A stretch of 64,000 nucleotides of DNA from an uncultured Poribacteria bacterium (GCA_958296135.2 CATQHZ020000001.1:4864001-4928000); one strand, 5' to 3'. Shown: positions 2,653-63,528, numbered from the stretch's first letter. The notes: generated by a model from the sequence alone, not told the origin. Translations and numbers: made by a program.

Positions 2653-2680
2653 GTAGGGCGAGGGAAACCTGTCCCTCGCC
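2653..2680. repeat. GTAG-type REP-like palindrome
   Basis: gtagggcgagggaaacctgtccctcgcc; most abundant family in the window. Confidence 0.7.
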
Positions 2681-10080: not shown

Positions 10081-10175
10081 GTAACGGGCGGATAGAGACA
10101 TCCGCCCGTTACAGTACCCGACACGGCGAGGGGAACCCTCGGCGATTCGCGCTCGCCGGGTTTTCCCTCGCCCTA
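10081..10175. repeat. Two adjacent REP-like palindromes between convergent genes (possible terminator)
   Basis: gtaacgggcggatagagacatccgcccgttac, then a composite ggcgaggg...ccctcgccctac element. Confidence 0.7.
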
Positions 10176-10192
10176 CGGACTCGGATAATTTG

Positions 10193-32392: not shown

Positions 32393-33796
32393 CTACTTCC
32401 GAATCAACATCTTCTTGGTTGCAGAGAATTCACCGGCTTTGAGCGTGTAGAAATACACCCCGCTCGCAACAGGCTCTCCCTGTGCATTTCGGCCATCCCA
32501 ATATGCAGCACGGGATTTGTCCGAATAGACACCCGCTGGAACTTGGCCCAACTCCAATGTGCGAACCAGTTTCCCATCCGCCGAATGGATGGAGACCGAG
32601 ACTTCAGCAGACTGTGCCAACTGATACGGTATCCACGTTTCCGGGTTAAACGGATTCGGATAGTTCTCCAGTAGTGCTGTTACGGGCGGTGCCAGTTGCG
32701 CGGGTTGTTCGGGTGCCGCAAGTGCACTCCCGCCTGTCCAACGGTAGATGCGGACGTAGCCATCCGAACAGCCGACAGCCATCTTTTTTCCGTCGTCACT
32801 AAATGCGATGCAATACGGCGTGGACGGAATATTAACTCTCGCATCAAGATCACCGTTGGAAATGTCCCAGAAAAGCACCTGTTGGCTCCCTGTCTTATCT
32901 CCACAATACGCGAGAATTTCCCCGTTCGGCGTGAATTCTATGTCGCGTATATAGTAACTCGAGTCGAGGGTACGCAGCAGATCACCGCTCCAATTCCAGA
33001 TGTAGAGGCGGTTCTGCCAATCGACTCCGGCTACCCGTATGGAGTTATTGGAATAGTTATCGGTGATTGCAATGTCTTTAATGGATTCTGAGCCCCAGTA
33101 GTTATCGGTTATTTTGCCATCGGGACCATAAGTCCATTCATCAATGTTGCGGTCGCCATCCGCGACGTAGACTCTCGATCCGTCAGGAAGGATATCTATA
33201 GCGTTCATGTCCAAATGGTCCGCTCCTCCTGCGATTTTGAGTTGCCACCCGTTGGTCCCCCATGTGTCATAGATTGCCCAGCCGTGATGACGGACCTCTA
33301 CGCAGACGGGGCCGAACGCAACAGTCTGATCCCATTCAGCACATGAATTACCACCTGCTACTGCGACATAGTCCGCATCATCGTCTATAGCGATCTGTCG
33401 CCCCGACGAGCTACCAAAACCGCCAACTATGTGAGTCGAAGCGATACCGGGCATGTCGCCAGTTGTATGCCGCAAGTGAAGGCTCTGATTGTACATCACG
33501 GCGAGAACACTGAAATTCTTTGCAACGTCAATAGAGTGCACGCGTCCGCTGCCATTCCAATCTCTCCACCAGTACCGGCCTGACGAGATGTCCCATTTGT
33601 AAAGCCGATCTCCCTTACCGAAGAAGACCTCGTTGTTGCCCTTAAACCCTACATCGAGGATCTCGGAATTAATATCCTCATCGTTGGCCTGACCGTTAAG
33701 ACTCAGGTCATACACCCATGATTGCGCTGCTGTCATCTGGCATAACGTTGCCATGAGCAGCACGGCAGTTAGGGTGAAAACTAAACTTCTCATCAT
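32393..33796 (-). CDS. Secreted WD40-like propeller with C-terminal FlgD-Ig/sorting-like domain
   Basis: Signal peptide, WD-like repeats, NYPNPFNPETWIPYQL...WDGRN...ASGVYFY. Confidence 0.88.
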   Translation of the reverse strand: MMRSLVFTLTAVLLMATLCQMTAAQSWVYDLSLNGQANDEDINSEILDVGFKGNNEVFFGKGDRLYKWDISSGRYWWRDWNGSGRVHSIDVAKNFSVLAVMYNQSLHLRHTTGDMPGIASTHIVGGFGSSSGRQIAIDDDADYVAVAGGNSCAEWDQTVAFGPVCVEVRHHGWAIYDTWGTNGWQLKIAGGADHLDMNAIDILPDGSRVYVADGDRNIDEWTYGPDGKITDNYWGSESIKDIAITDNYSNNSIRVAGVDWQNRLYIWNWSGDLLRTLDSSYYIRDIEFTPNGEILAYCGDKTGSQQVLFWDISNGDLDARVNIPSTPYCIAFSDDGKKMAVGCSDGYVRIYRWTGGSALAAPEQPAQLAPPVTALLENYPNPFNPETWIPYQLAQSAEVSVSIHSADGKLVRTLELGQVPAGVYSDKSRAAYWDGRNAQGEPVASGVYFYTLKAGEFSATKKMLIRK

Positions 33797-34178
33797 AATT
33801 CTCCTTGCTCGCCACAAGAGCAAGCAATAAAAATGATTGTGGTTAATAGCGGCGGCATTACTCGCGCCGCCGCATCACATCGGAAAAACACCTGCCGCCA
33901 TCAAGATCGCTATCCCGTTGCCCCCATCTCCTCGGTTCGCCCACTCCATCGAAAACGCGCGAAGACAGTAACTCACGCCCCCAAACGCAGCGCGCGGAAA
34001 CTTCTCGCTGAGGCAAAACTGGACAAACGGGGAAAATAATGGAAACGGTGGCAACCGGAAACGTGGCAGGGAAATGCATCGGGCCAGTCCCAATGCAACA
34101 GAAATAGCCCGCCACGCAAAGAATGCGTGCGGGATTGATGACAAAACGCCGAATATCGACGCTGTCAAGCGGATAAAT

Positions 34179-34439: not shown

Positions 34440-34469
34440 ATTATACACAAAAAATGCAATAAATGTCAA
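34440..34469 (-). promoter_or_regulatory. Near-consensus sigma70 promoter
   Basis: TTGACA-N18-TATAAT on minus strand. Confidence 0.7.
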
Positions 34470-34606
34470 CGTTTTTTCGCGAAAAATCGAGAAAACAGTC
34501 GAATTTAAGCGAAAAATTGACAAAAACGTTCAAAACTGATGTTATTTTAGCAAATTTTGCATTTTTTGTCAAGTTTTGCAAAAAAACGAAAAACGCTCCC
34601 TCTACC

Positions 34607-35381
34607 GTAGCGCGAGGGCCTGTCCCTCGCGATCTCCCGAAGAAAACAGCCTTCTTTGAACGTAGCGCGAGGGCCTGTCCCTCGCGATCTCCCGACCTAT
34701 GCGAGAACCGTCCTTGGTTGAGGTGCCTAAGGACGGTTTCTGTGACGACCGAGGCATGGCGAGGCACAGGACCTCGCCCTACGGTGAGGGGGGCGGGACT
34801 TAGCCGTAGCGCGAGGGCCGTTACGCCGAAACTTTGTCCTCTCTGCAGCCTCGCTGCAGAGATGTCCACTGTCCCTCGCGATCTCTCGACCGCCACGAAA
34901 AATGCCCGCAGCCCAGAAGCCGCGAACGTTTTTGACAGGATCGGGCATGGCGAGGCACAGGCCCTCGCCCTACGGTGAGGGGGCGGGACTTAGCCGTAGC
35001 GCGAGGGCCGTTACGGTCACGCCTACAGCAAACGTGCGTGTGTCGCCCCGCGTAAACACGGTCACGTCTACAGTAAACGTGCGTGTGTCGCCCCGCGTAA
35101 ACACGCTACCTTACTTTAACGTTGTCCTCTCTGCAGCCTCGCTGCAGAGATGTCCACTGTCCCTCGCGATCTCTCGACCGCCACGAAAAATGCCCGCAGC
35201 CCAGAAGCCGCGAACGTTTTTGACAGGATCGGGCATGGCGAGGCACAGGCCCTCGCCCTACGGTGAGGGGGGGGGCGGCTCGATGCATAGCGAGGGACAG
35301 GCGCTGGCTCGAGTTGAAAGATAGCGCGATGGTTCGTTTCGGGCGGCTCGATGCATAGCGAGGGACAGACCCGCGCCCTAC
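34607..35381. repeat. Dense cluster of REP-like elements with internal duplications
   Basis: Several GTAG palindromes in both orientations, about 150-bp direct repeat (34835 and 35122), 45-bp tandem repeat at 35013. Confidence 0.9.
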
Positions 35382-35435
35382 GTTTTGCAAGGAATGAACG
35401 CGCATCGTCCCTACATCCCTTTAACTGTTTTCACC

Positions 35436-37382
35436 CTACGGCCAAAAATTATACATCGGCTGCTGCGTCACAACACTAATTAGACTCCAAATCCCACCTA
35501 CCGTGAAATCGCCGAGCATCAACCCTATCGCGAACATCACTAAACGTTGCGAAGCGCGCGGGCCCGCTATCTTCAAGACTGCCCACTTGACAACAGAACT
35601 CACTAACATGCAACTCCAGAGATACCGCATCCCCCAATCGCTACAGACGACAAACCCGATCGGATGGAACGGCCACCAGAAGAAACGCGCCCGCATAAAC
35701 ATCAAAACCGTCGAAAAGCACAACCCGAAAAGGATGCCGCCGGTGGCATAGAAATTCGGCTCCGTCGGATAATAGAGCCAGCGTTGCAACCCGTTGAAGA
35801 CGCGCCCACCGAAGCCTGTCGCCCAACTACTGGTGCCGCTCATGTTCAACGCGCCGTAGGTATAAAATAGATACAGGATAACGCCGAATACCATCACGGC
35901 GGCGAACGCGGAAATGCCGAGTATCGCGAAGAACAACCGACTCGGCGCGATAGCGGAACGTTCCAAGAGTTTGAAGCCTTCCAACTGATGTGGCATCGGG
36001 TTGCTGGTATAACTCCGATTGAACCAGCGGTAGAGCGTCAATGCAACAAGGTTATTCGTGCCGAGTGCCCGCGTGCCGAAACTGTCAACGAGGATGTGGT
36101 GGTTCGGCATGTTCTCCATCGCATGCACAGGGAACCCTTGCTCGGCGCGCATCCGCGTCAGCACGAAGACGATGATGAAATAGATGGCGAAAAAGAGCGG
36201 CATCAACCAGAACGACATGCCGATACGCTTGGAGAAGAGGAAGAGTAGCGCGAGCCCACCGATGATACCCCACAGCGCAAATCGATAGGATACCGGTTCA
36301 TCTGCATCTTCGCCAGTGCGGTGCCGCGCGATGCGGAAAACACCCCGGAAATGCCGCAGGTTCAGCACGAACACGGAGATGAAAATTCCGACCGCGGCAC
36401 CGAAGCACTGCCTGTCGATATACGGAAACCCCGGCAGGCTAGAGAGCCCGGCTGCACTGGTGATGACTAATTGCGCCTTATAGAAGAGGAAGAAGAACCA
36501 ACTTGAAAACGCCAGATCGAGCGGCATCAACAGCCCTAGCCCGATGACGAACGGATAATAGGACATGCTGATACCGCCGATGGCGTTCCACGGCTTTTCT
36601 GTAAAAAGATGTCCGAACCCTTGCCACCCGCCGATGCGCTTAATCGGCAGATTCGGAATTGTTGGATAGAGGAAACTGAGCCCGTTTAGCACGGCAATTG
36701 AGGCGGCAATTCCGAATCCGAGCCACGTGATACGATGCGAGAATAGCGATTTTGTATTGTGGGTGACGTGAAAGGCGATTTGTGTAATCGGATAGGCGAG
36801 CCGTTCGCGTTCTACCCACTGCTTCCGCAAGATGACGTTAATGCACAACATCACAAGGACGATAGCCGTCATGAACGCCGCCCACGCTAGCGTCGGCCCG
36901 AGCCAGGCACTAATAATTTCTAGCGTGGTGAGGCTCGATTCACCGGTGTAATACCCTGCAAGCACTTTCTGTTCATCAACGAGGAGCCATCTCGGTAGGT
37001 AATCCCAAAAGAGCTGCTTCCATTCGTTTTCGGGGGTGGCGAACCAGAAGGCGTGTCCAATGGTAGTGACGAGAATCGTCATTAGCGTGATGGACGGGAA
37101 CGCGCACGCCGTGCTGAGCAGAATGTATATCGTGAGGAGCTCCGCATTGTCAAGTAGAACTCGGCGCGTCGTTCGCTTGGCGACAAGGGTGAGCAGCGTC
37201 AACGCGAAGACGACGAAAACGACGTTGTAAAACGGAACGGCGTAGGTATTCAGCGCATACCCGACGAGCCCGACTTCACCCGCGATAATCCAATAAAAAT
37301 TGAACGGCATCAGCACGAGCGTGATGGCGATGGATTTCCACGTTACGCCTTGTGCGCGATGTAGGCGTTCATCATCCTGCAT
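35436..37382 (-). CDS. Polytopic membrane protein (DUF6785/DUF6784-like, putative transporter)
   Basis: 648 aa, many TM helices, RKQWVERERLAYP, RMRAEQG, WWPFHPIG. Confidence 0.8.
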   Translation of the reverse strand: MQDDERLHRAQGVTWKSIAITLVLMPFNFYWIIAGEVGLVGYALNTYAVPFYNVVFVVFALTLLTLVAKRTTRRVLLDNAELLTIYILLSTACAFPSITLMTILVTTIGHAFWFATPENEWKQLFWDYLPRWLLVDEQKVLAGYYTGESSLTTLEIISAWLGPTLAWAAFMTAIVLVMLCINVILRKQWVERERLAYPITQIAFHVTHNTKSLFSHRITWLGFGIAASIAVLNGLSFLYPTIPNLPIKRIGGWQGFGHLFTEKPWNAIGGISMSYYPFVIGLGLLMPLDLAFSSWFFFLFYKAQLVITSAAGLSSLPGFPYIDRQCFGAAVGIFISVFVLNLRHFRGVFRIARHRTGEDADEPVSYRFALWGIIGGLALLFLFSKRIGMSFWLMPLFFAIYFIIVFVLTRMRAEQGFPVHAMENMPNHHILVDSFGTRALGTNNLVALTLYRWFNRSYTSNPMPHQLEGFKLLERSAIAPSRLFFAILGISAFAAVMVFGVILYLFYTYGALNMSGTSSWATGFGGRVFNGLQRWLYYPTEPNFYATGGILFGLCFSTVLMFMRARFFWWPFHPIGFVVCSDWGMRYLWSCMLVSSVVKWAVLKIAGPRASQRLVMFAIGLMLGDFTVGGIWSLISVVTQQPMYNFWP

Positions 37383-37736: not shown

Positions 37737-37869
37737 GGTGTCCGACCGCGGGGGACAGTGGACATCTCTGCAGACAACGTCTCGGCGTAACGGCCCCCAC
37801 GCCTAGGTAATTCTCTGCAGGAAGCCTGCAGAGATTTTTTGCCTCTAGACGTGCCCCCGCTAGGTGTGC

Positions 37870-45517: not shown

Positions 45518-45847
45518 TGCAGAAGCTTTTTACCGTAGCGCGGGGGCCCGGCAGTCACTAACTGCCGAGGGTTTCCCCCGCGATGCCCGTGCTGCCAGTC
45601 GCACTGACGTTGTCAATGCTCATGGTTGTGGCTTTTCTGCTGTCCATAGGCGCGCTGCCACCTTGTCCGTAGGCGCGGTTTGATGCAGAAGCTTTTTACC
45701 GTAGCGCGGGGGCCCGGCAGTCACTAACTGCCGAGGGTTTCCCCCGCGATGCCCGCGCTGCCAGTCGCACTGACGTTGTCAATGCTCATGGTTGTGGCTT
45801 TTCTGCTGTCCATAGGCGCGGTGACACCTTGTCCGTAGGCGCGGTTT
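45518..45847 (+). repeat. Tandem duplication, 2 x about 166 bp, with composite REP elements
   Basis: Copies start at 45518 and 45684. Confidence 0.92.
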
Positions 45848-49650: not shown

Positions 49651-49863
49651 CACCGTAGCGCGAGGGCCGTTACGCCGAAACTTTGTCATATCTGCAGCCT
49701 CGCTGCAGATATGTCCACTGTCCCTCGCAATCGTAGATTGAAACGAAGAACCGCTCCTTCCACCGTAGCGCGAGGGCCGTTACGCCGAAACTTTGTCATA
49801 TCTGCAGCCTCGCTGCAGATATGTCCACTGTCCCTCGCAATCGTAGATTGAAACGAAGAACCG
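49651..49863 (+). repeat. Tandem 2 x 110-bp composite REP element
   Basis: gtagcgcgagggc[cgttacgccgaaac...ctgcagcctcgctgcag...]ctgtccctcgc twice; same element at 34807. Confidence 0.92.
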
Positions 49864-61711: not shown

Positions 61712-63528
61712 CGGTTTCCTCTGAATAATTTCAATTTTCCTTCCGAGGCGATGAGCGTATAGCAGGCCTCGATTTCCGATGCGATTTTCGATGCGATTGG
61801 GGCATCGCGAGGGAGAAACTCTCGCTCTACGGGGGCGGCAGTTGGTTCGTTTGGGGTGCCCCAAAGTAGCAAATAGTCGACGTTGTCAGCATACGCGCAC
61901 AAATCGATCTTTTCGGGCTGCCAATGGACGATTTGTACCCACTCCTTCTCTTGGATGGGTGTCTCAAAATCGGCGTTGAAGCGGACCGGAAAATAGTCAA
62001 ACTGCACTTCGTAGTTGCCGAGGTTAATGCCCCCGTTGTCAAGGCAGTAGTAGTTCGCGGCGTTGACGAAGATGCCGACTTTGAGGGAACTCCCCCTCGG
62101 CTCAAAATGGAGCGGCAAGATAACTTTGTTTTTCTCTATCTTCCCAACAAAGGCGTTGAATTCGCGCAATTCGGCGTTGAGATTTTTGCAAAGCACCCCG
62201 ATGTAAAGCACGTTTATCACGGCGAGCAATGTTACGATGCCGGTAAAAACCTGCCGCCACCGCGGTTTATCGCTTTCACGAAACCAAGCGAATAGCGTGA
62301 GTGTGGCGAGAATGGCGAGTCTATCGTTTACCCAGCCGCCTGGCCCGATGGAGTTCGGCAAGATTAGATACAACCCGAAAAGCACGCCGGATAGGATGAG
62401 GAAGGCACGGGGTGCATTCATACCGTAGCGCGAGGGCCTGTCCCTCGCGAACCCCCGGTCTCCAACAGACTCGTCCGGCACCCCGTAGCGCGAGGGCCTG
62501 TCCCTCGCGAACCCCCGGTCTTCATGAAAATCTTCGGCATGGCGAGGGGAACCCTCGGCGATTCGCGCTCGCCGGCCCCTCGTCCTACGGGGCCGGGAGG
62601 TTCTTCTATTTTGCCAAAGTGTCCACACGGCAAGAAAAATTAGGAGCGCGGAGACGGCGTAGGAAATCAGTGCCTGCGCTTCGTTGAAGGCGATTAGGAC
62701 TTTCAAACCGAGGAGGTTATCTAGTAGTTCGCCGAGGCGATTCAGTCCGAATTCTGGGGGCTCCCCTGCCACCAGATCAGATGTGGGGAGATAGACGAGC
62801 AACAGCAGTGCGGCGGGGAGAATAGAGAGCCCTGTCCGGAAGATTTGCGGCAGGTTCCGCTTGAAATGGAGCACGGACAGCAGCGCGATGGCGAATAAGA
62901 GGAACGCGTAAGAAATGAGATGCGCGAAATAGGTGATGACGATGAGCAGGTTCAACAGCACGGCGCGCTTCAGACTTATCGCATCCCGATGTCGATACCA
63001 ATACCCGAGCGTCAGGAAGAAGAGCGGCACACTCACGGCGAAATTATAGAATCCCATCAACAGGAGGTAGTTGTAGATAAAGGTGAAACTGAGGATGACG
63101 AGCGACTGTCGGCCCGGCTCTTTTGTAAGGGGGTTCGATTGGCCGAACTTGGCACTAACATTCTGCAGCGTATCTCGTCGGAGGGTTTCTGGCTTATACC
63201 TGTGTGCGGCGTTCAGAAAATAACGCATCGCCAGCGGGAATAGGATGACGTAGAGGCTCAGAAACACCTTCTCTGCGATGAGCGGCGGGAAGACGAACAT
63301 CAGCATCGCCAATGCGAAATGCGAGAGCCAGTTCGGGAAAGGATACCAATTGATTTCGTAATAGGCGCGGAATTCGTAGTCGGGGTTGCGGTATTCGGTT
63401 AAAATCTGCGAGTTATAGACATGGCTCACGCCGTCTTGCGTTGGAAAATAGGGGAACAGCCATATCGGTAGCAGGTAGGCGATAATGAGCGCGCCCAGTA
63501 GCAGTGTGGATTTTGAGAAGAATGCCAT
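61708..63528 (-). CDS. Polytopic membrane protein (GT-C glycosyltransferase-like) with REP-derived insertions
   Basis: PTQDGVSH, PNWL, MGFYNF, many TM helices. Confidence 0.75.
   Translation of the reverse strand: MAFFSKSTLLLGALIIAYLLPIWLFPYFPTQDGVSHVYNSQILTEYRNPDYEFRAYYEINWYPFPNWLSHFALAMLMFVFPPLIAEKVFLSLYVILFPLAMRYFLNAAHRYKPETLRRDTLQNVSAKFGQSNPLTKEPGRQSLVILSFTFIYNYLLLMGFYNFAVSVPLFFLTLGYWYRHRDAISLKRAVLLNLLIVITYFAHLISYAFLLFAIALLSVLHFKRNLPQIFRTGLSILPAALLLLVYLPTSDLVAGEPPEFGLNRLGELLDNLLGLKVLIAFNEAQALISYAVSALLIFLAVWTLWQNRRTSRPRRTRGRRARIAEGSPRHAEDFHEDRGFARDRPSRYGVPDESVGDRGFARDRPSRYGMNAPRAFLILSGVLFGLYLILPNSIGPGGWVNDRLAILATLTLFAWFRESDKPRWRQVFTGIVTLLAVINVLYIGVLCKNLNAELREFNAFVGKIEKNKVILPLHFEPRGSSLKVGIFVNAANYYCLDNGGINLGNYEVQFDYFPVRFNADFETPIQEKEWVQIVHWQPEKIDLCAYADNVDYLLLWGTPNEPTAAPVEREFLPRDAPIASKIASEIEACYTLIASEGKLKLFRGNR

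Follow-up and report, generated by a model that had tools for sequence, protein, structure and literature searches.

The window analysed here is a stretch of 64,000 nucleotides from the genome of an uncultured Poribacteria bacterium (G000:C1:4864001-4928000), part of a 5.01-Mb contig (the chromosome) with a GC content of 54%. At window positions 34607-35381, an array of GTAG-tagged palindromes lies between a gene for a WD40 protein that carries a type IX secretion sorting tail (32393-33823, minus strand) and a gene for a DUF6785+DUF6784 protein (35436-37382, minus strand). The latter gene shares 93% and 91% nucleotide identity with its counterparts in congeners, where its neighbours differ. 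Open reading frames of 99-171 codons overlap the REP array (window 34441-35405; for example 34463-34978, plus strand) and are very likely spurious translations of the repeats. Read from left to right, the array opens with a pair of plain hairpins and an inverted variant; next come a composite whose 'loop' measures 55 nt, a plain copy in inverted orientation and a second composite, with a 'loop' of 153 nt, and a further inverted copy and two degenerate copies close the array. The flanks of the second composite are near-identical to those of the first, which makes the two a pair that differs as cassette A against cassette A with two A2 units. The features of the array, followed by related elements elsewhere in the window, are as follows.

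34607-34631, plus strand: basic REP, GTAG and an 8-bp stem (CGCGAGGG/CCCTCGCG) with loop CCTGT; predicted fold -10.8 kcal/mol, z -3.0
34662-34686, plus strand: basic REP, unit 2 of a 55-nt tandem pair
34750-34783, minus strand: inverted REP variant, GGCGAGG..CCTCGCC, with a CTAC end; paired with the next forward REP in a BIME-like arrangement
34806-34880, plus strand: composite REP, outer arms with the 50-nt cassette A at CC^TGT
34949-34973, minus strand: basic REP, inverted, with G-type arms
34996-35168, plus strand: three-level composite; within the REP arms lies cassette A, which in turn holds a tandem pair of 45-nt A2 units
35013-35057 and 35058-35102: the A2 units within that composite, in tandem, 45 nt each
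35237-35261, minus strand: basic REP, inverted
35281-35382, minus strand: two degenerate inverted REP copies at the end of the array
2653-2680, plus strand: REP with the A-run module alone, loop AAACCTGT
10125-10176, minus strand: composite with A-run (AAAA) and cassette B
22527-22645 (about 22527-22574; 22598-22645), plus strand: two tandem cassette-B composites, the first with a degenerate head, ATAG
About 37747-37806, minus strand: truncated composite A that has lost half of its inner palindrome and has a degenerate head
45535-45582 and 45701-45748, plus strand: two cassette-B composites within a 166-nt local duplication, with arms CGCGGGGG and of the CGGCAG/CTGCCG variant
49655-49839 (49655-49729, 49765-49839), plus strand: two A composites, arranged as a 110-nt tandem repeat
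62425-62588: two basic REPs (plus strand), then an inverted, slightly degenerate cassette-B composite (minus strand, about 62541-62588)

An earlier note on this DNA had claimed that one pair of arms occurs either empty or with different hairpin cassettes in its loop, and its coordinates held. The copies at 34607-34631 and 34662-34686 are empty; the CTGCAG type, here cassette A, reported at 34807, 49655 and 49765 was found at 34806-34880, 49655-49729 and 49765-49839; and the CGGCGA..TCGCCG type, here cassette B, was found at all of 10125, 22528, 22598 and 62541. The variant described near 37742 is a copy of cassette A, now placed on the minus strand and seen to be truncated. The CGGCAG..CTGCCG type is present at 45535 and 45701 as well, but it proved to be a variant of B in which two stem pairs have changed in a compensatory way, and its copies belong to a local duplication. 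Beyond these claims, we identified the A2 units in 34996-35168 and an A-run module at the 5' side of the loop. The family's words are also in excess over shuffled sequence: the window contains 19 copies of GCGAGGGC, where 3.84 would be expected (100 shuffles, largest 10), and 13 of GTCCCTCGC, where 0.59 would (largest shuffle value 3). Four contigs from one sample break at the array repeats and none spans the stretch.

Copies on the whole chromosome were counted with a pattern of GTAG and an 8-nt arm followed by the nearest reverse-complementary arm, with at most one mismatch. This returned 1313 family heads, 1211 of them with a matching right arm; GTAG directly abuts the 8-nt arm in the 1313 heads, and the consensus there is near-invariant. 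Loop lengths fall genome-wide into sharp classes of 5, 8/9, 28, 32, 55, 104/108, 153/157 and 202 nt. By content, the 1313 copies divide into 596 basic REPs, 143 with B, 46 with A-run and B, 132 with A, 1 with A-run and A, 34 with A and one to four A2 units, and 81 short variants (71 of them A-run), together with 64 that span more than one REP, 114 classed as 'other' and 102 in which the right arm is absent. Composites thus make up 356 of the 1313 copies, at least a quarter. Among the 5-nt loops, CCTGT is found in 476 of 572.

Compared with the features that define the GTAG superfamily, these elements carry the tag at the foot of the hairpin, have a short GC-rich stem (8 bp) and occur in high copy number, mostly between genes and in alternating arrays; position between genes was judged against crude long-ORF calls, outside which most heads lie. 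The short loop of that superfamily (2-5 nt, or a short second stem) is found in the 596 basic copies but not in the composites, whose loops measure 28-202 nt, and the composites are therefore derivatives of the GTAG-REP family and non-canonical members of it. Adjacent pairs of a REP and an inverted REP, as in REPINs, are present in the arrays; the composites themselves are nested and non-adjacent. The 12 nt that flank the elements are 35-50% off consensus, against 4% for cassette A and 7% for cassette B, and such divergent outer flanks around conserved cassettes indicate that the copies are dispersed elements and not segmental duplications. The family is real, genome-wide, modular and GTAG-tagged, and its scaffold is that of a GTAG REP. 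The second contig of this genome (C2, 143886 bases) has a GC content of 36.8%, against 54.4% for the chromosome, and is nearly devoid of REP words (3 arm matches); possible identities are a plasmid, foreign DNA and a contaminant introduced by binning.

The loop modules differ in position, size and design. The A-run is AAA or AAAA in a slot between GGG and CC (GGG^CC) and is found in about 118 copies. Cassette B is a 23-nt hairpin after CC (CGGCGA-7 nt-TCGCCG-AGGG) with unclean boundaries, as the TGT of the loop is changed to TTY (TTT or TTC), which is not a simple insertion. Cassette A measures 50 nt, has a 12-bp consensus hairpin and lies between CC and TGT. Inside it, after ..ACG, stand one to four tandem copies of the 45-nt hairpin unit A2, which amounts to 105 units in the genome with 39 adjacent pairs spaced exactly 45 nt. 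Elements with A and with A+A2 differ by more than an indel, the former reading CCGAAAC and the latter CCTTTAAC. Counted by loop class there are about 170 copies of A and about 190 of B, and they are spread over the whole chromosome rather than confined to the window as local duplications. Read on the opposite strand, A is a GTGG-tagged and A2 a GTAG-tagged hairpin, both resembling inverted mini-REPs, and these tags are conserved (CTAC in 100 of the 105 A2 units; CCAC in about 182 copies of A); B carries no such tag. The same C/T mismatch in the inner stem (CTGCCG vs CTGCAG) is seen in 43 of 110 A copies, reminiscent of the stem mismatch that E. coli TnpA-REP needs for binding.

A deliberately strict core scan, which undercounts variants, placed 74 of 74 A-core and 54 of 55 B-core matches in a REP context, and a looser hairpin search, with the listing judged by eye, found one A-stem-like hairpin outside a REP context in the genome. 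That one free hairpin lies in the window at 37812-37834 (to 37840 with its T-run), 5 nt from the truncated composite A; it is terminator-like, with a 10-bp stem followed by the T-run, and its stem is nearly identical to that of cassette A. It is possible that this hairpin is a relic of the origin of cassette A.

Folding had been proposed as a check in the earlier note, and the predicted folds of single-stranded DNA keep the outer REP stem and place the cassettes within it as inner hairpins or branches. For the composite at 34806-34880, the predicted fold retains both the outer stem and an inner hairpin of 10 bp, compared with the 12 bp of the family consensus. Compensatory double changes were found in the inner stems of 4 A copies (2 of them in the window) and of 11 B copies, the latter with two pairs changed in each, and in both A composites of 49655-49839 an inner-stem C-G pair is replaced by A-T, a compensatory change. 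The outer stem shows compensatory pairs at two positions, with counts that are biased by the arm filter of the census.

The content of the loop also differs between neighbouring copies that are otherwise much alike. Among 85 pairs of same-strand neighbours whose 40-nt flanks align well, the loop class differs in 10 rows (7 loci), and these include B against A and B against A+A2. Full alignment of two pairs of tandem units, C1:4017733/4018004 and C1:4473055/4473305, showed that the units of each pair differ by exactly one 50-nt block, gained or lost at the loop, while their arms agree and their flanks are about 99-100% identical; in one pair, one unit has B and the other A+A2. No direct repeat flanks the 50-nt A block, and apart from its internal hairpin the block lacks terminal inverted repeats, so that the terminal inverted repeats and target-site duplication by which a MITE is recognised are both absent. 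Readings of the cassettes as MITEs or IS elements were rejected, as terminal repeats, a target duplication and a gene are all lacking.

These pairs bear on the alternative that each composite arose through a single chance insertion or duplication and was then copied as a whole, with local differences produced by gene conversion or recombination through the shared arms. Such copying would account for the strong linkage of modules, in which the A-run accompanies B in 46 elements and A in 1, and for the uneven use of arms by A, with CGCGAGGG in 83 of 117 A copies compared with 231 of 572 basic REPs and GGCGGGGG arms never found in A. It also gains from the pairs in which identical flanks enclose B in one copy and A or A+A2 in the other, since these need replacement and not simple insertion. 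On the other hand, the arms offer just 8-13 nt of homology, the basic and A units differ by exact 50-nt blocks between the same arms and near-identical flanks, and B sits on all four main arm variants in proportions about as in basic REPs. We regard whole-composite copying from single chance events as a rather doubtful account. Module linkage together with the skewed arm use of A does indicate that much of the pattern is lineage spread rather than free insertion, and we conclude that two processes both act, a discrete change of loop content and the copying of whole composites.

We compared the family with that of two congeners, G001 (86% complete) and G002. As an exact match, the basic 24-mer occurs 293 times in the genome under study (G000), 517 times in G001 and 1961 times in G002, and was not matched in any of 28 further genomes from the same family and order. 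With tolerant patterns, cassette A was found 208 times in G000 and in neither G001 nor G002, and cassette B 197 times in G000, once in G001 and not in G002, while a B-like cassette of G002 was found 602 times there, 18 times in G001 and not in G000. The REP scaffold is therefore common to the three congeners and the cassette sets are species-specific.

For orthologous positions, the sample was one 400-kb block of G002 that is collinear with G000 at about 85% identity. Of its 163 orthologous gaps, 94 have a REP in neither genome, 46 in G002 alone, 8 in G000 alone and 15 in both. Composites occupy 12 of the 163 gaps in G000, and 10 of these 12 hold REPs in G002. Most orthologous REP arrays in the block are too rearranged for base-by-base alignment; in the readable alignments, G002 has a plain REP where G000 has a composite at 3 positions (one A, two B). 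At C1:604579 the composite and its G002 counterpart differ also in the closing pair of the arm, and in one case a whole composite A of G000 stands at a site that is REP-free in G002, both of which are in favour of the copying of entire composites. The intergenic region of the array itself is non-syntenic in G001 and G002, where another gene lies beside the DUF6785 ortholog, so it provides no direct empty site for the array 34607-35381. Taken with the nested folds and the exact 50-nt A blocks, the three plain-versus-composite positions support the suggestion in the earlier note that palindromes have inserted into palindromes, although each single difference may be an insertion or a precise excision. 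Its further suggestion that composites spread as units is likewise supported by the unrelated flanks of copies genome-wide, the composite at a REP-free congener site and the linkage between modules.

The cassette of G002 follows the design of B (CC, hairpin, mGGGTTy) with a different 9-bp hairpin. It resembles the right arm and tail of the REP followed by their inverted complement (CCCTCGCATGC...GCATGCGAG(A)GGG compared with the REP tail CCCTCGCCATGC), and by eye the B cassette of G000 shares this arrangement. This resemblance suggests that B-type cassettes may derive from the REP sequence itself. It also lends something to the idea that errors of replication at REP hairpins, and not a transposase, gave rise to the cassettes; fold-back or template switching would have formed inverted duplicates of arm and tail and carried loop content from REP to REP. 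The tandem 45-nt steps in which A2 changes (the 39 pairs above) are what slippage would give, and the G002 cassette has been amplified with no Y1 gene found beside its REP family. Errors would not preserve the opposite-strand GTGG and GTAG tags that A and A2 conserve, however, and there are no direct repeats around the 50-nt block to support slippage, while hundreds of dispersed copies require a copying mechanism. An origin of the cassettes in replication errors is therefore unlikely.

The orientation of the composites follows the local GC skew by about 3:1. With skew taken as the slope of cumulative GC skew in +/-100 kb windows, B has 17 plus and 57 minus copies where the slope rises and 65 plus and 20 minus where it falls (p = 1e-11), and A has 10 plus and 44 minus against 47 plus and 19 minus (p = 7e-9). 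After local clusters are collapsed, the bias persists for both (p = 1.6e-8 for B and 4.9e-6 for A). Basic REPs with C-type arms have the same bias in weaker form and those with G-type arms have none. No such bias was found for gene strand against skew (crude gene calls, whole genome), and the orientation of composites relative to neighbouring genes is only about 60:40.

The gene dnaA lies at 14 kb, near the region of the skew minimum, and replichores of 1.6 and 3.4 Mb are estimated from GC skew and the position of dnaA alone. The cumulative skew is irregular, with a maximum at 1.59 Mb, a minimum at 4.92 Mb, a flat stretch at 0-0.5 Mb and a reversed bump at about 2.75-3.25 Mb, and this suggests that the replichores are unequal, or that there is an inversion or a misassembly. 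On the assumption that the leading strand is the G-rich one, composites have their outer GTAG strand mostly on the leading-strand template, contrary to what the IS608 rule gives for an active strand. The other strand, on which A reads as GTGG and a hairpin and A2 as GTAG and a hairpin, is then on the lagging-strand template. Since the IS608 rule fits the A and A2 cassettes but not the outer REP, and B is untagged, we treat the direction of the bias as unexplained; it would agree with the rule only if processing acted on the inverted tags of the cassettes or on the iREP strand.

A bias of this size is like that of polar chromosome motifs, and it raises the alternative that composites are host-selected structured elements, whether RNA stabilisers, terminators or strand-oriented replication or segregation signals, in which selection keeps both loop and orientation. 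The preservation of inner stems through compensatory changes would agree with this, as would the preference of REPs for convergent over divergent gaps (109 vs 46 basic REPs, at equal gap numbers). Against it, the cassettes differ from species to species, with A absent from both congeners; orientation follows flanking genes by only the ratio given above; no Rfam match was obtained in the window at the gathering threshold; and copies accumulate in tandem arrays and around a transposase gene. We consider host selection the least probable of the explanations weighed here.

As the earlier note had stated, no mobilising transposase is encoded in the window. The genome contains two Y1_Tnp genes. The canonical one scores 125 bits against NCBIfam REP_Tyr_transpos and is flanked by a second GTAG family, GTAGGAG[AG]GAC...GTC[TC]C, with 369 regex matches (gene and flanks at G000:C1:3732978-3736307). 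In six elements, a copy of this second family lies inside the loop or right-arm region of a REP of the first family, and the cleanest of these copies are bordered by repeated CTGTCCC. The other Y1_Tnp gene, 72 kb upstream of the window (G000:C1:4791068-4791610, 181 aa), encodes a divergent RAYT-like protein that passes Pfam Y1_Tnp with 29.8 bits and scores about 57 bits (57.3) against NCBIfam REP_Tyr_transpos, whose cut-off is 80. By eye it contains the motifs HFH and AYIENNP, the latter with an Asn at +4 from the Tyr, the spacing of the active-site residues Y115/N119 in E. coli TnpA-REP (Messing et al., PMC3479197). Phmmer found no relative of the protein in the PDB at E <= 0.01, and a search for related loci recovered distant relatives alone (28-51% over parts), in MAGs of Acidobacteriota and Bacteroidota.

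Forward copies of the present family flank the divergent gene, one of them basic, one with B and four with A, and inverted copies follow further out on both sides. The proposal to look for RAYT genes flanked by the family thus led to a Y1 gene amid basic, B and A copies, although one that stays below the NCBIfam cut-off. The hallmark of a REPtron, a Y1 HUH gene flanked by one and the same REP family, is accordingly present at G000:C1:4791068-4791610, but the co-occurrence of RAYT and REP across relatives is not, as the REPs are found in three congeners and the gene in one. No ortholog was found in G001 (at the completeness given above) or G002 at E <= 1e-5. Of the Y1 matches in G002, one is orthologous to the canonical RAYT and the other is a broken IS605 TnpA, and no Y1 gene adjoining this REP family was found there. 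G002 has a further GTAG-tagged palindrome family (GTAGTTCGGGAGC...GCTCCCGAAC) that is interleaved with its REP arrays and flanks its canonical RAYT. Given that G002 has some 2000 basic REPs and its own cassette in 602 copies, with no such gene found, amplification is not obviously dependent on the divergent RAYT-like gene, and the tie of this gene to the A and B bursts is a weak correlation in one genome.

The explanation that we favour, at a probability of roughly 0.55, is a genus-specific GTAG REP family in which the loop acts as a docking slot for hairpin modules, with RAYT-type single-strand processing and cassettes that hitch-hike. One slot, GGG^CC, would receive the A-run; the other, CC^T, would take B or A; and the inner slot of A would take one to four A2 units. 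Each composite retains GTAG and the foot of the stem, the parts that a RAYT-type HUH Y1 transposase would recognise, and for this reason it should stay mobilisable while the contents of its loop are carried along. Cassettes may enter and leave on single-stranded DNA at replication forks, the DNA being cut and rejoined at sites of the C^T type, among them the CC^T of the loop. The species-specific RAYT-like gene 72 kb upstream is a candidate driver of the A and B expansion in G000. Of these elements, we infer RAYT-type single-strand processing at the loop as the best supported.

A more specific version would make the REP loop a dedicated landing pad. Here A and A2, as inverted GT(A/G)G mini-REPs, would be cut and pasted by the RAYT-type enzyme into CC^T on the lagging-strand template, nested hairpins would travel together, each species would keep its own repertoire, and a newly acquired RAYT would have launched the A and B bursts. 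We put this version forward tentatively, as possible and somewhat less doubtful than the copying of chance-formed composites.

The docking-slot reading, and the family itself, matter in several ways. The movement and diversification of REPs are still argued mainly from E. coli and Pseudomonas. Loop cassettes, exact empty and filled pairs and species-specific sets are natural markers, with which single events become visible and countable. The position of the cassettes points to the CC^T of the loop, a testable site that matches the published TnpA-REP motif, and the replication-linked orientation bias is a rare signal, within a genome, of REP-type processing at forks. For surveys and annotation there are more immediate consequences: surveys that drop 'unusual loops' will miss a large part of such a family, here at least a quarter of it, and REP arrays produce spurious ORFs of 100-170 codons, an annotation hazard.

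We found no description of multi-level nested cassettes with empty and filled pairs in the REP, RAYT and stem-loop literature searched, a body of work to which subscription journals largely do not belong. The BOX elements of Streptococcus pneumoniae are modular (boxA-boxB(n)-boxC) and have a variable internal tandem module. Unlike the cassettes described here, BOX modules are linear neighbours and are not nested in the loop of a GTAG hairpin, and no RAYT is known to be involved.

Further counterparts are the GTAG families of Di Nocera, De Gregorio and Rocco (2013, PMC3733652), some of which have complex self-complementary loops with an inner part of up to 27 bp. Such loop variants include enterobacterial GTAG-3 and Bradyrhizobium GTAG-14 (27 bp), and their abundance depends on the strain (PMC3733652). 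The present family shares with these REPs the GTAG tag at the foot, a stem of 6-13 bp, hundreds of copies, dimers and clusters, and the coexistence of loop variants. It differs in its loops of 55-202 nt with at least three separable modules and three-level nesting, in the tandem amplification of its innermost unit and in its exact empty and filled pairs. According to that survey, repeats with unusual loops were discarded (PMC3733652), so that nested-loop forms would have been missed.

REPs are also known as preferred insertion targets of IS1397, ISKpn1, IS621 and ISPpu9/10 (PMC1525189, PMC3184786). Those IS elements have their own transposase genes and ends, whereas the inserts described here are hairpins of 23-50 nt with no genes, no terminal inverted repeats and no target duplications.

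The family also resembles the REPtrons of E. coli and Pseudomonas, in which a Y1 HUH gene lies amid REP arrays in both orientations and the REPs carry a GT[AG]G tag (PMC3333891, PMC3479197, PMC6006769). GT[AG]G is an accepted REP tag, and 'long' REPs with a second stem have been described (Quentin et al., PMC6006769). Two differences stand out: the flanking gene in our case is divergent, below the NCBIfam cut-off and present in one of three REP-bearing congeners, and nested cassettes are absent from those systems as described. Both GTAG and the stem are required by E. coli TnpA-REP, whose cleavage site is CC^T or C^T (Ton-Hoang et al., PMC3333891), and this published cleavage consensus coincides with the position of the cassettes in the loop.
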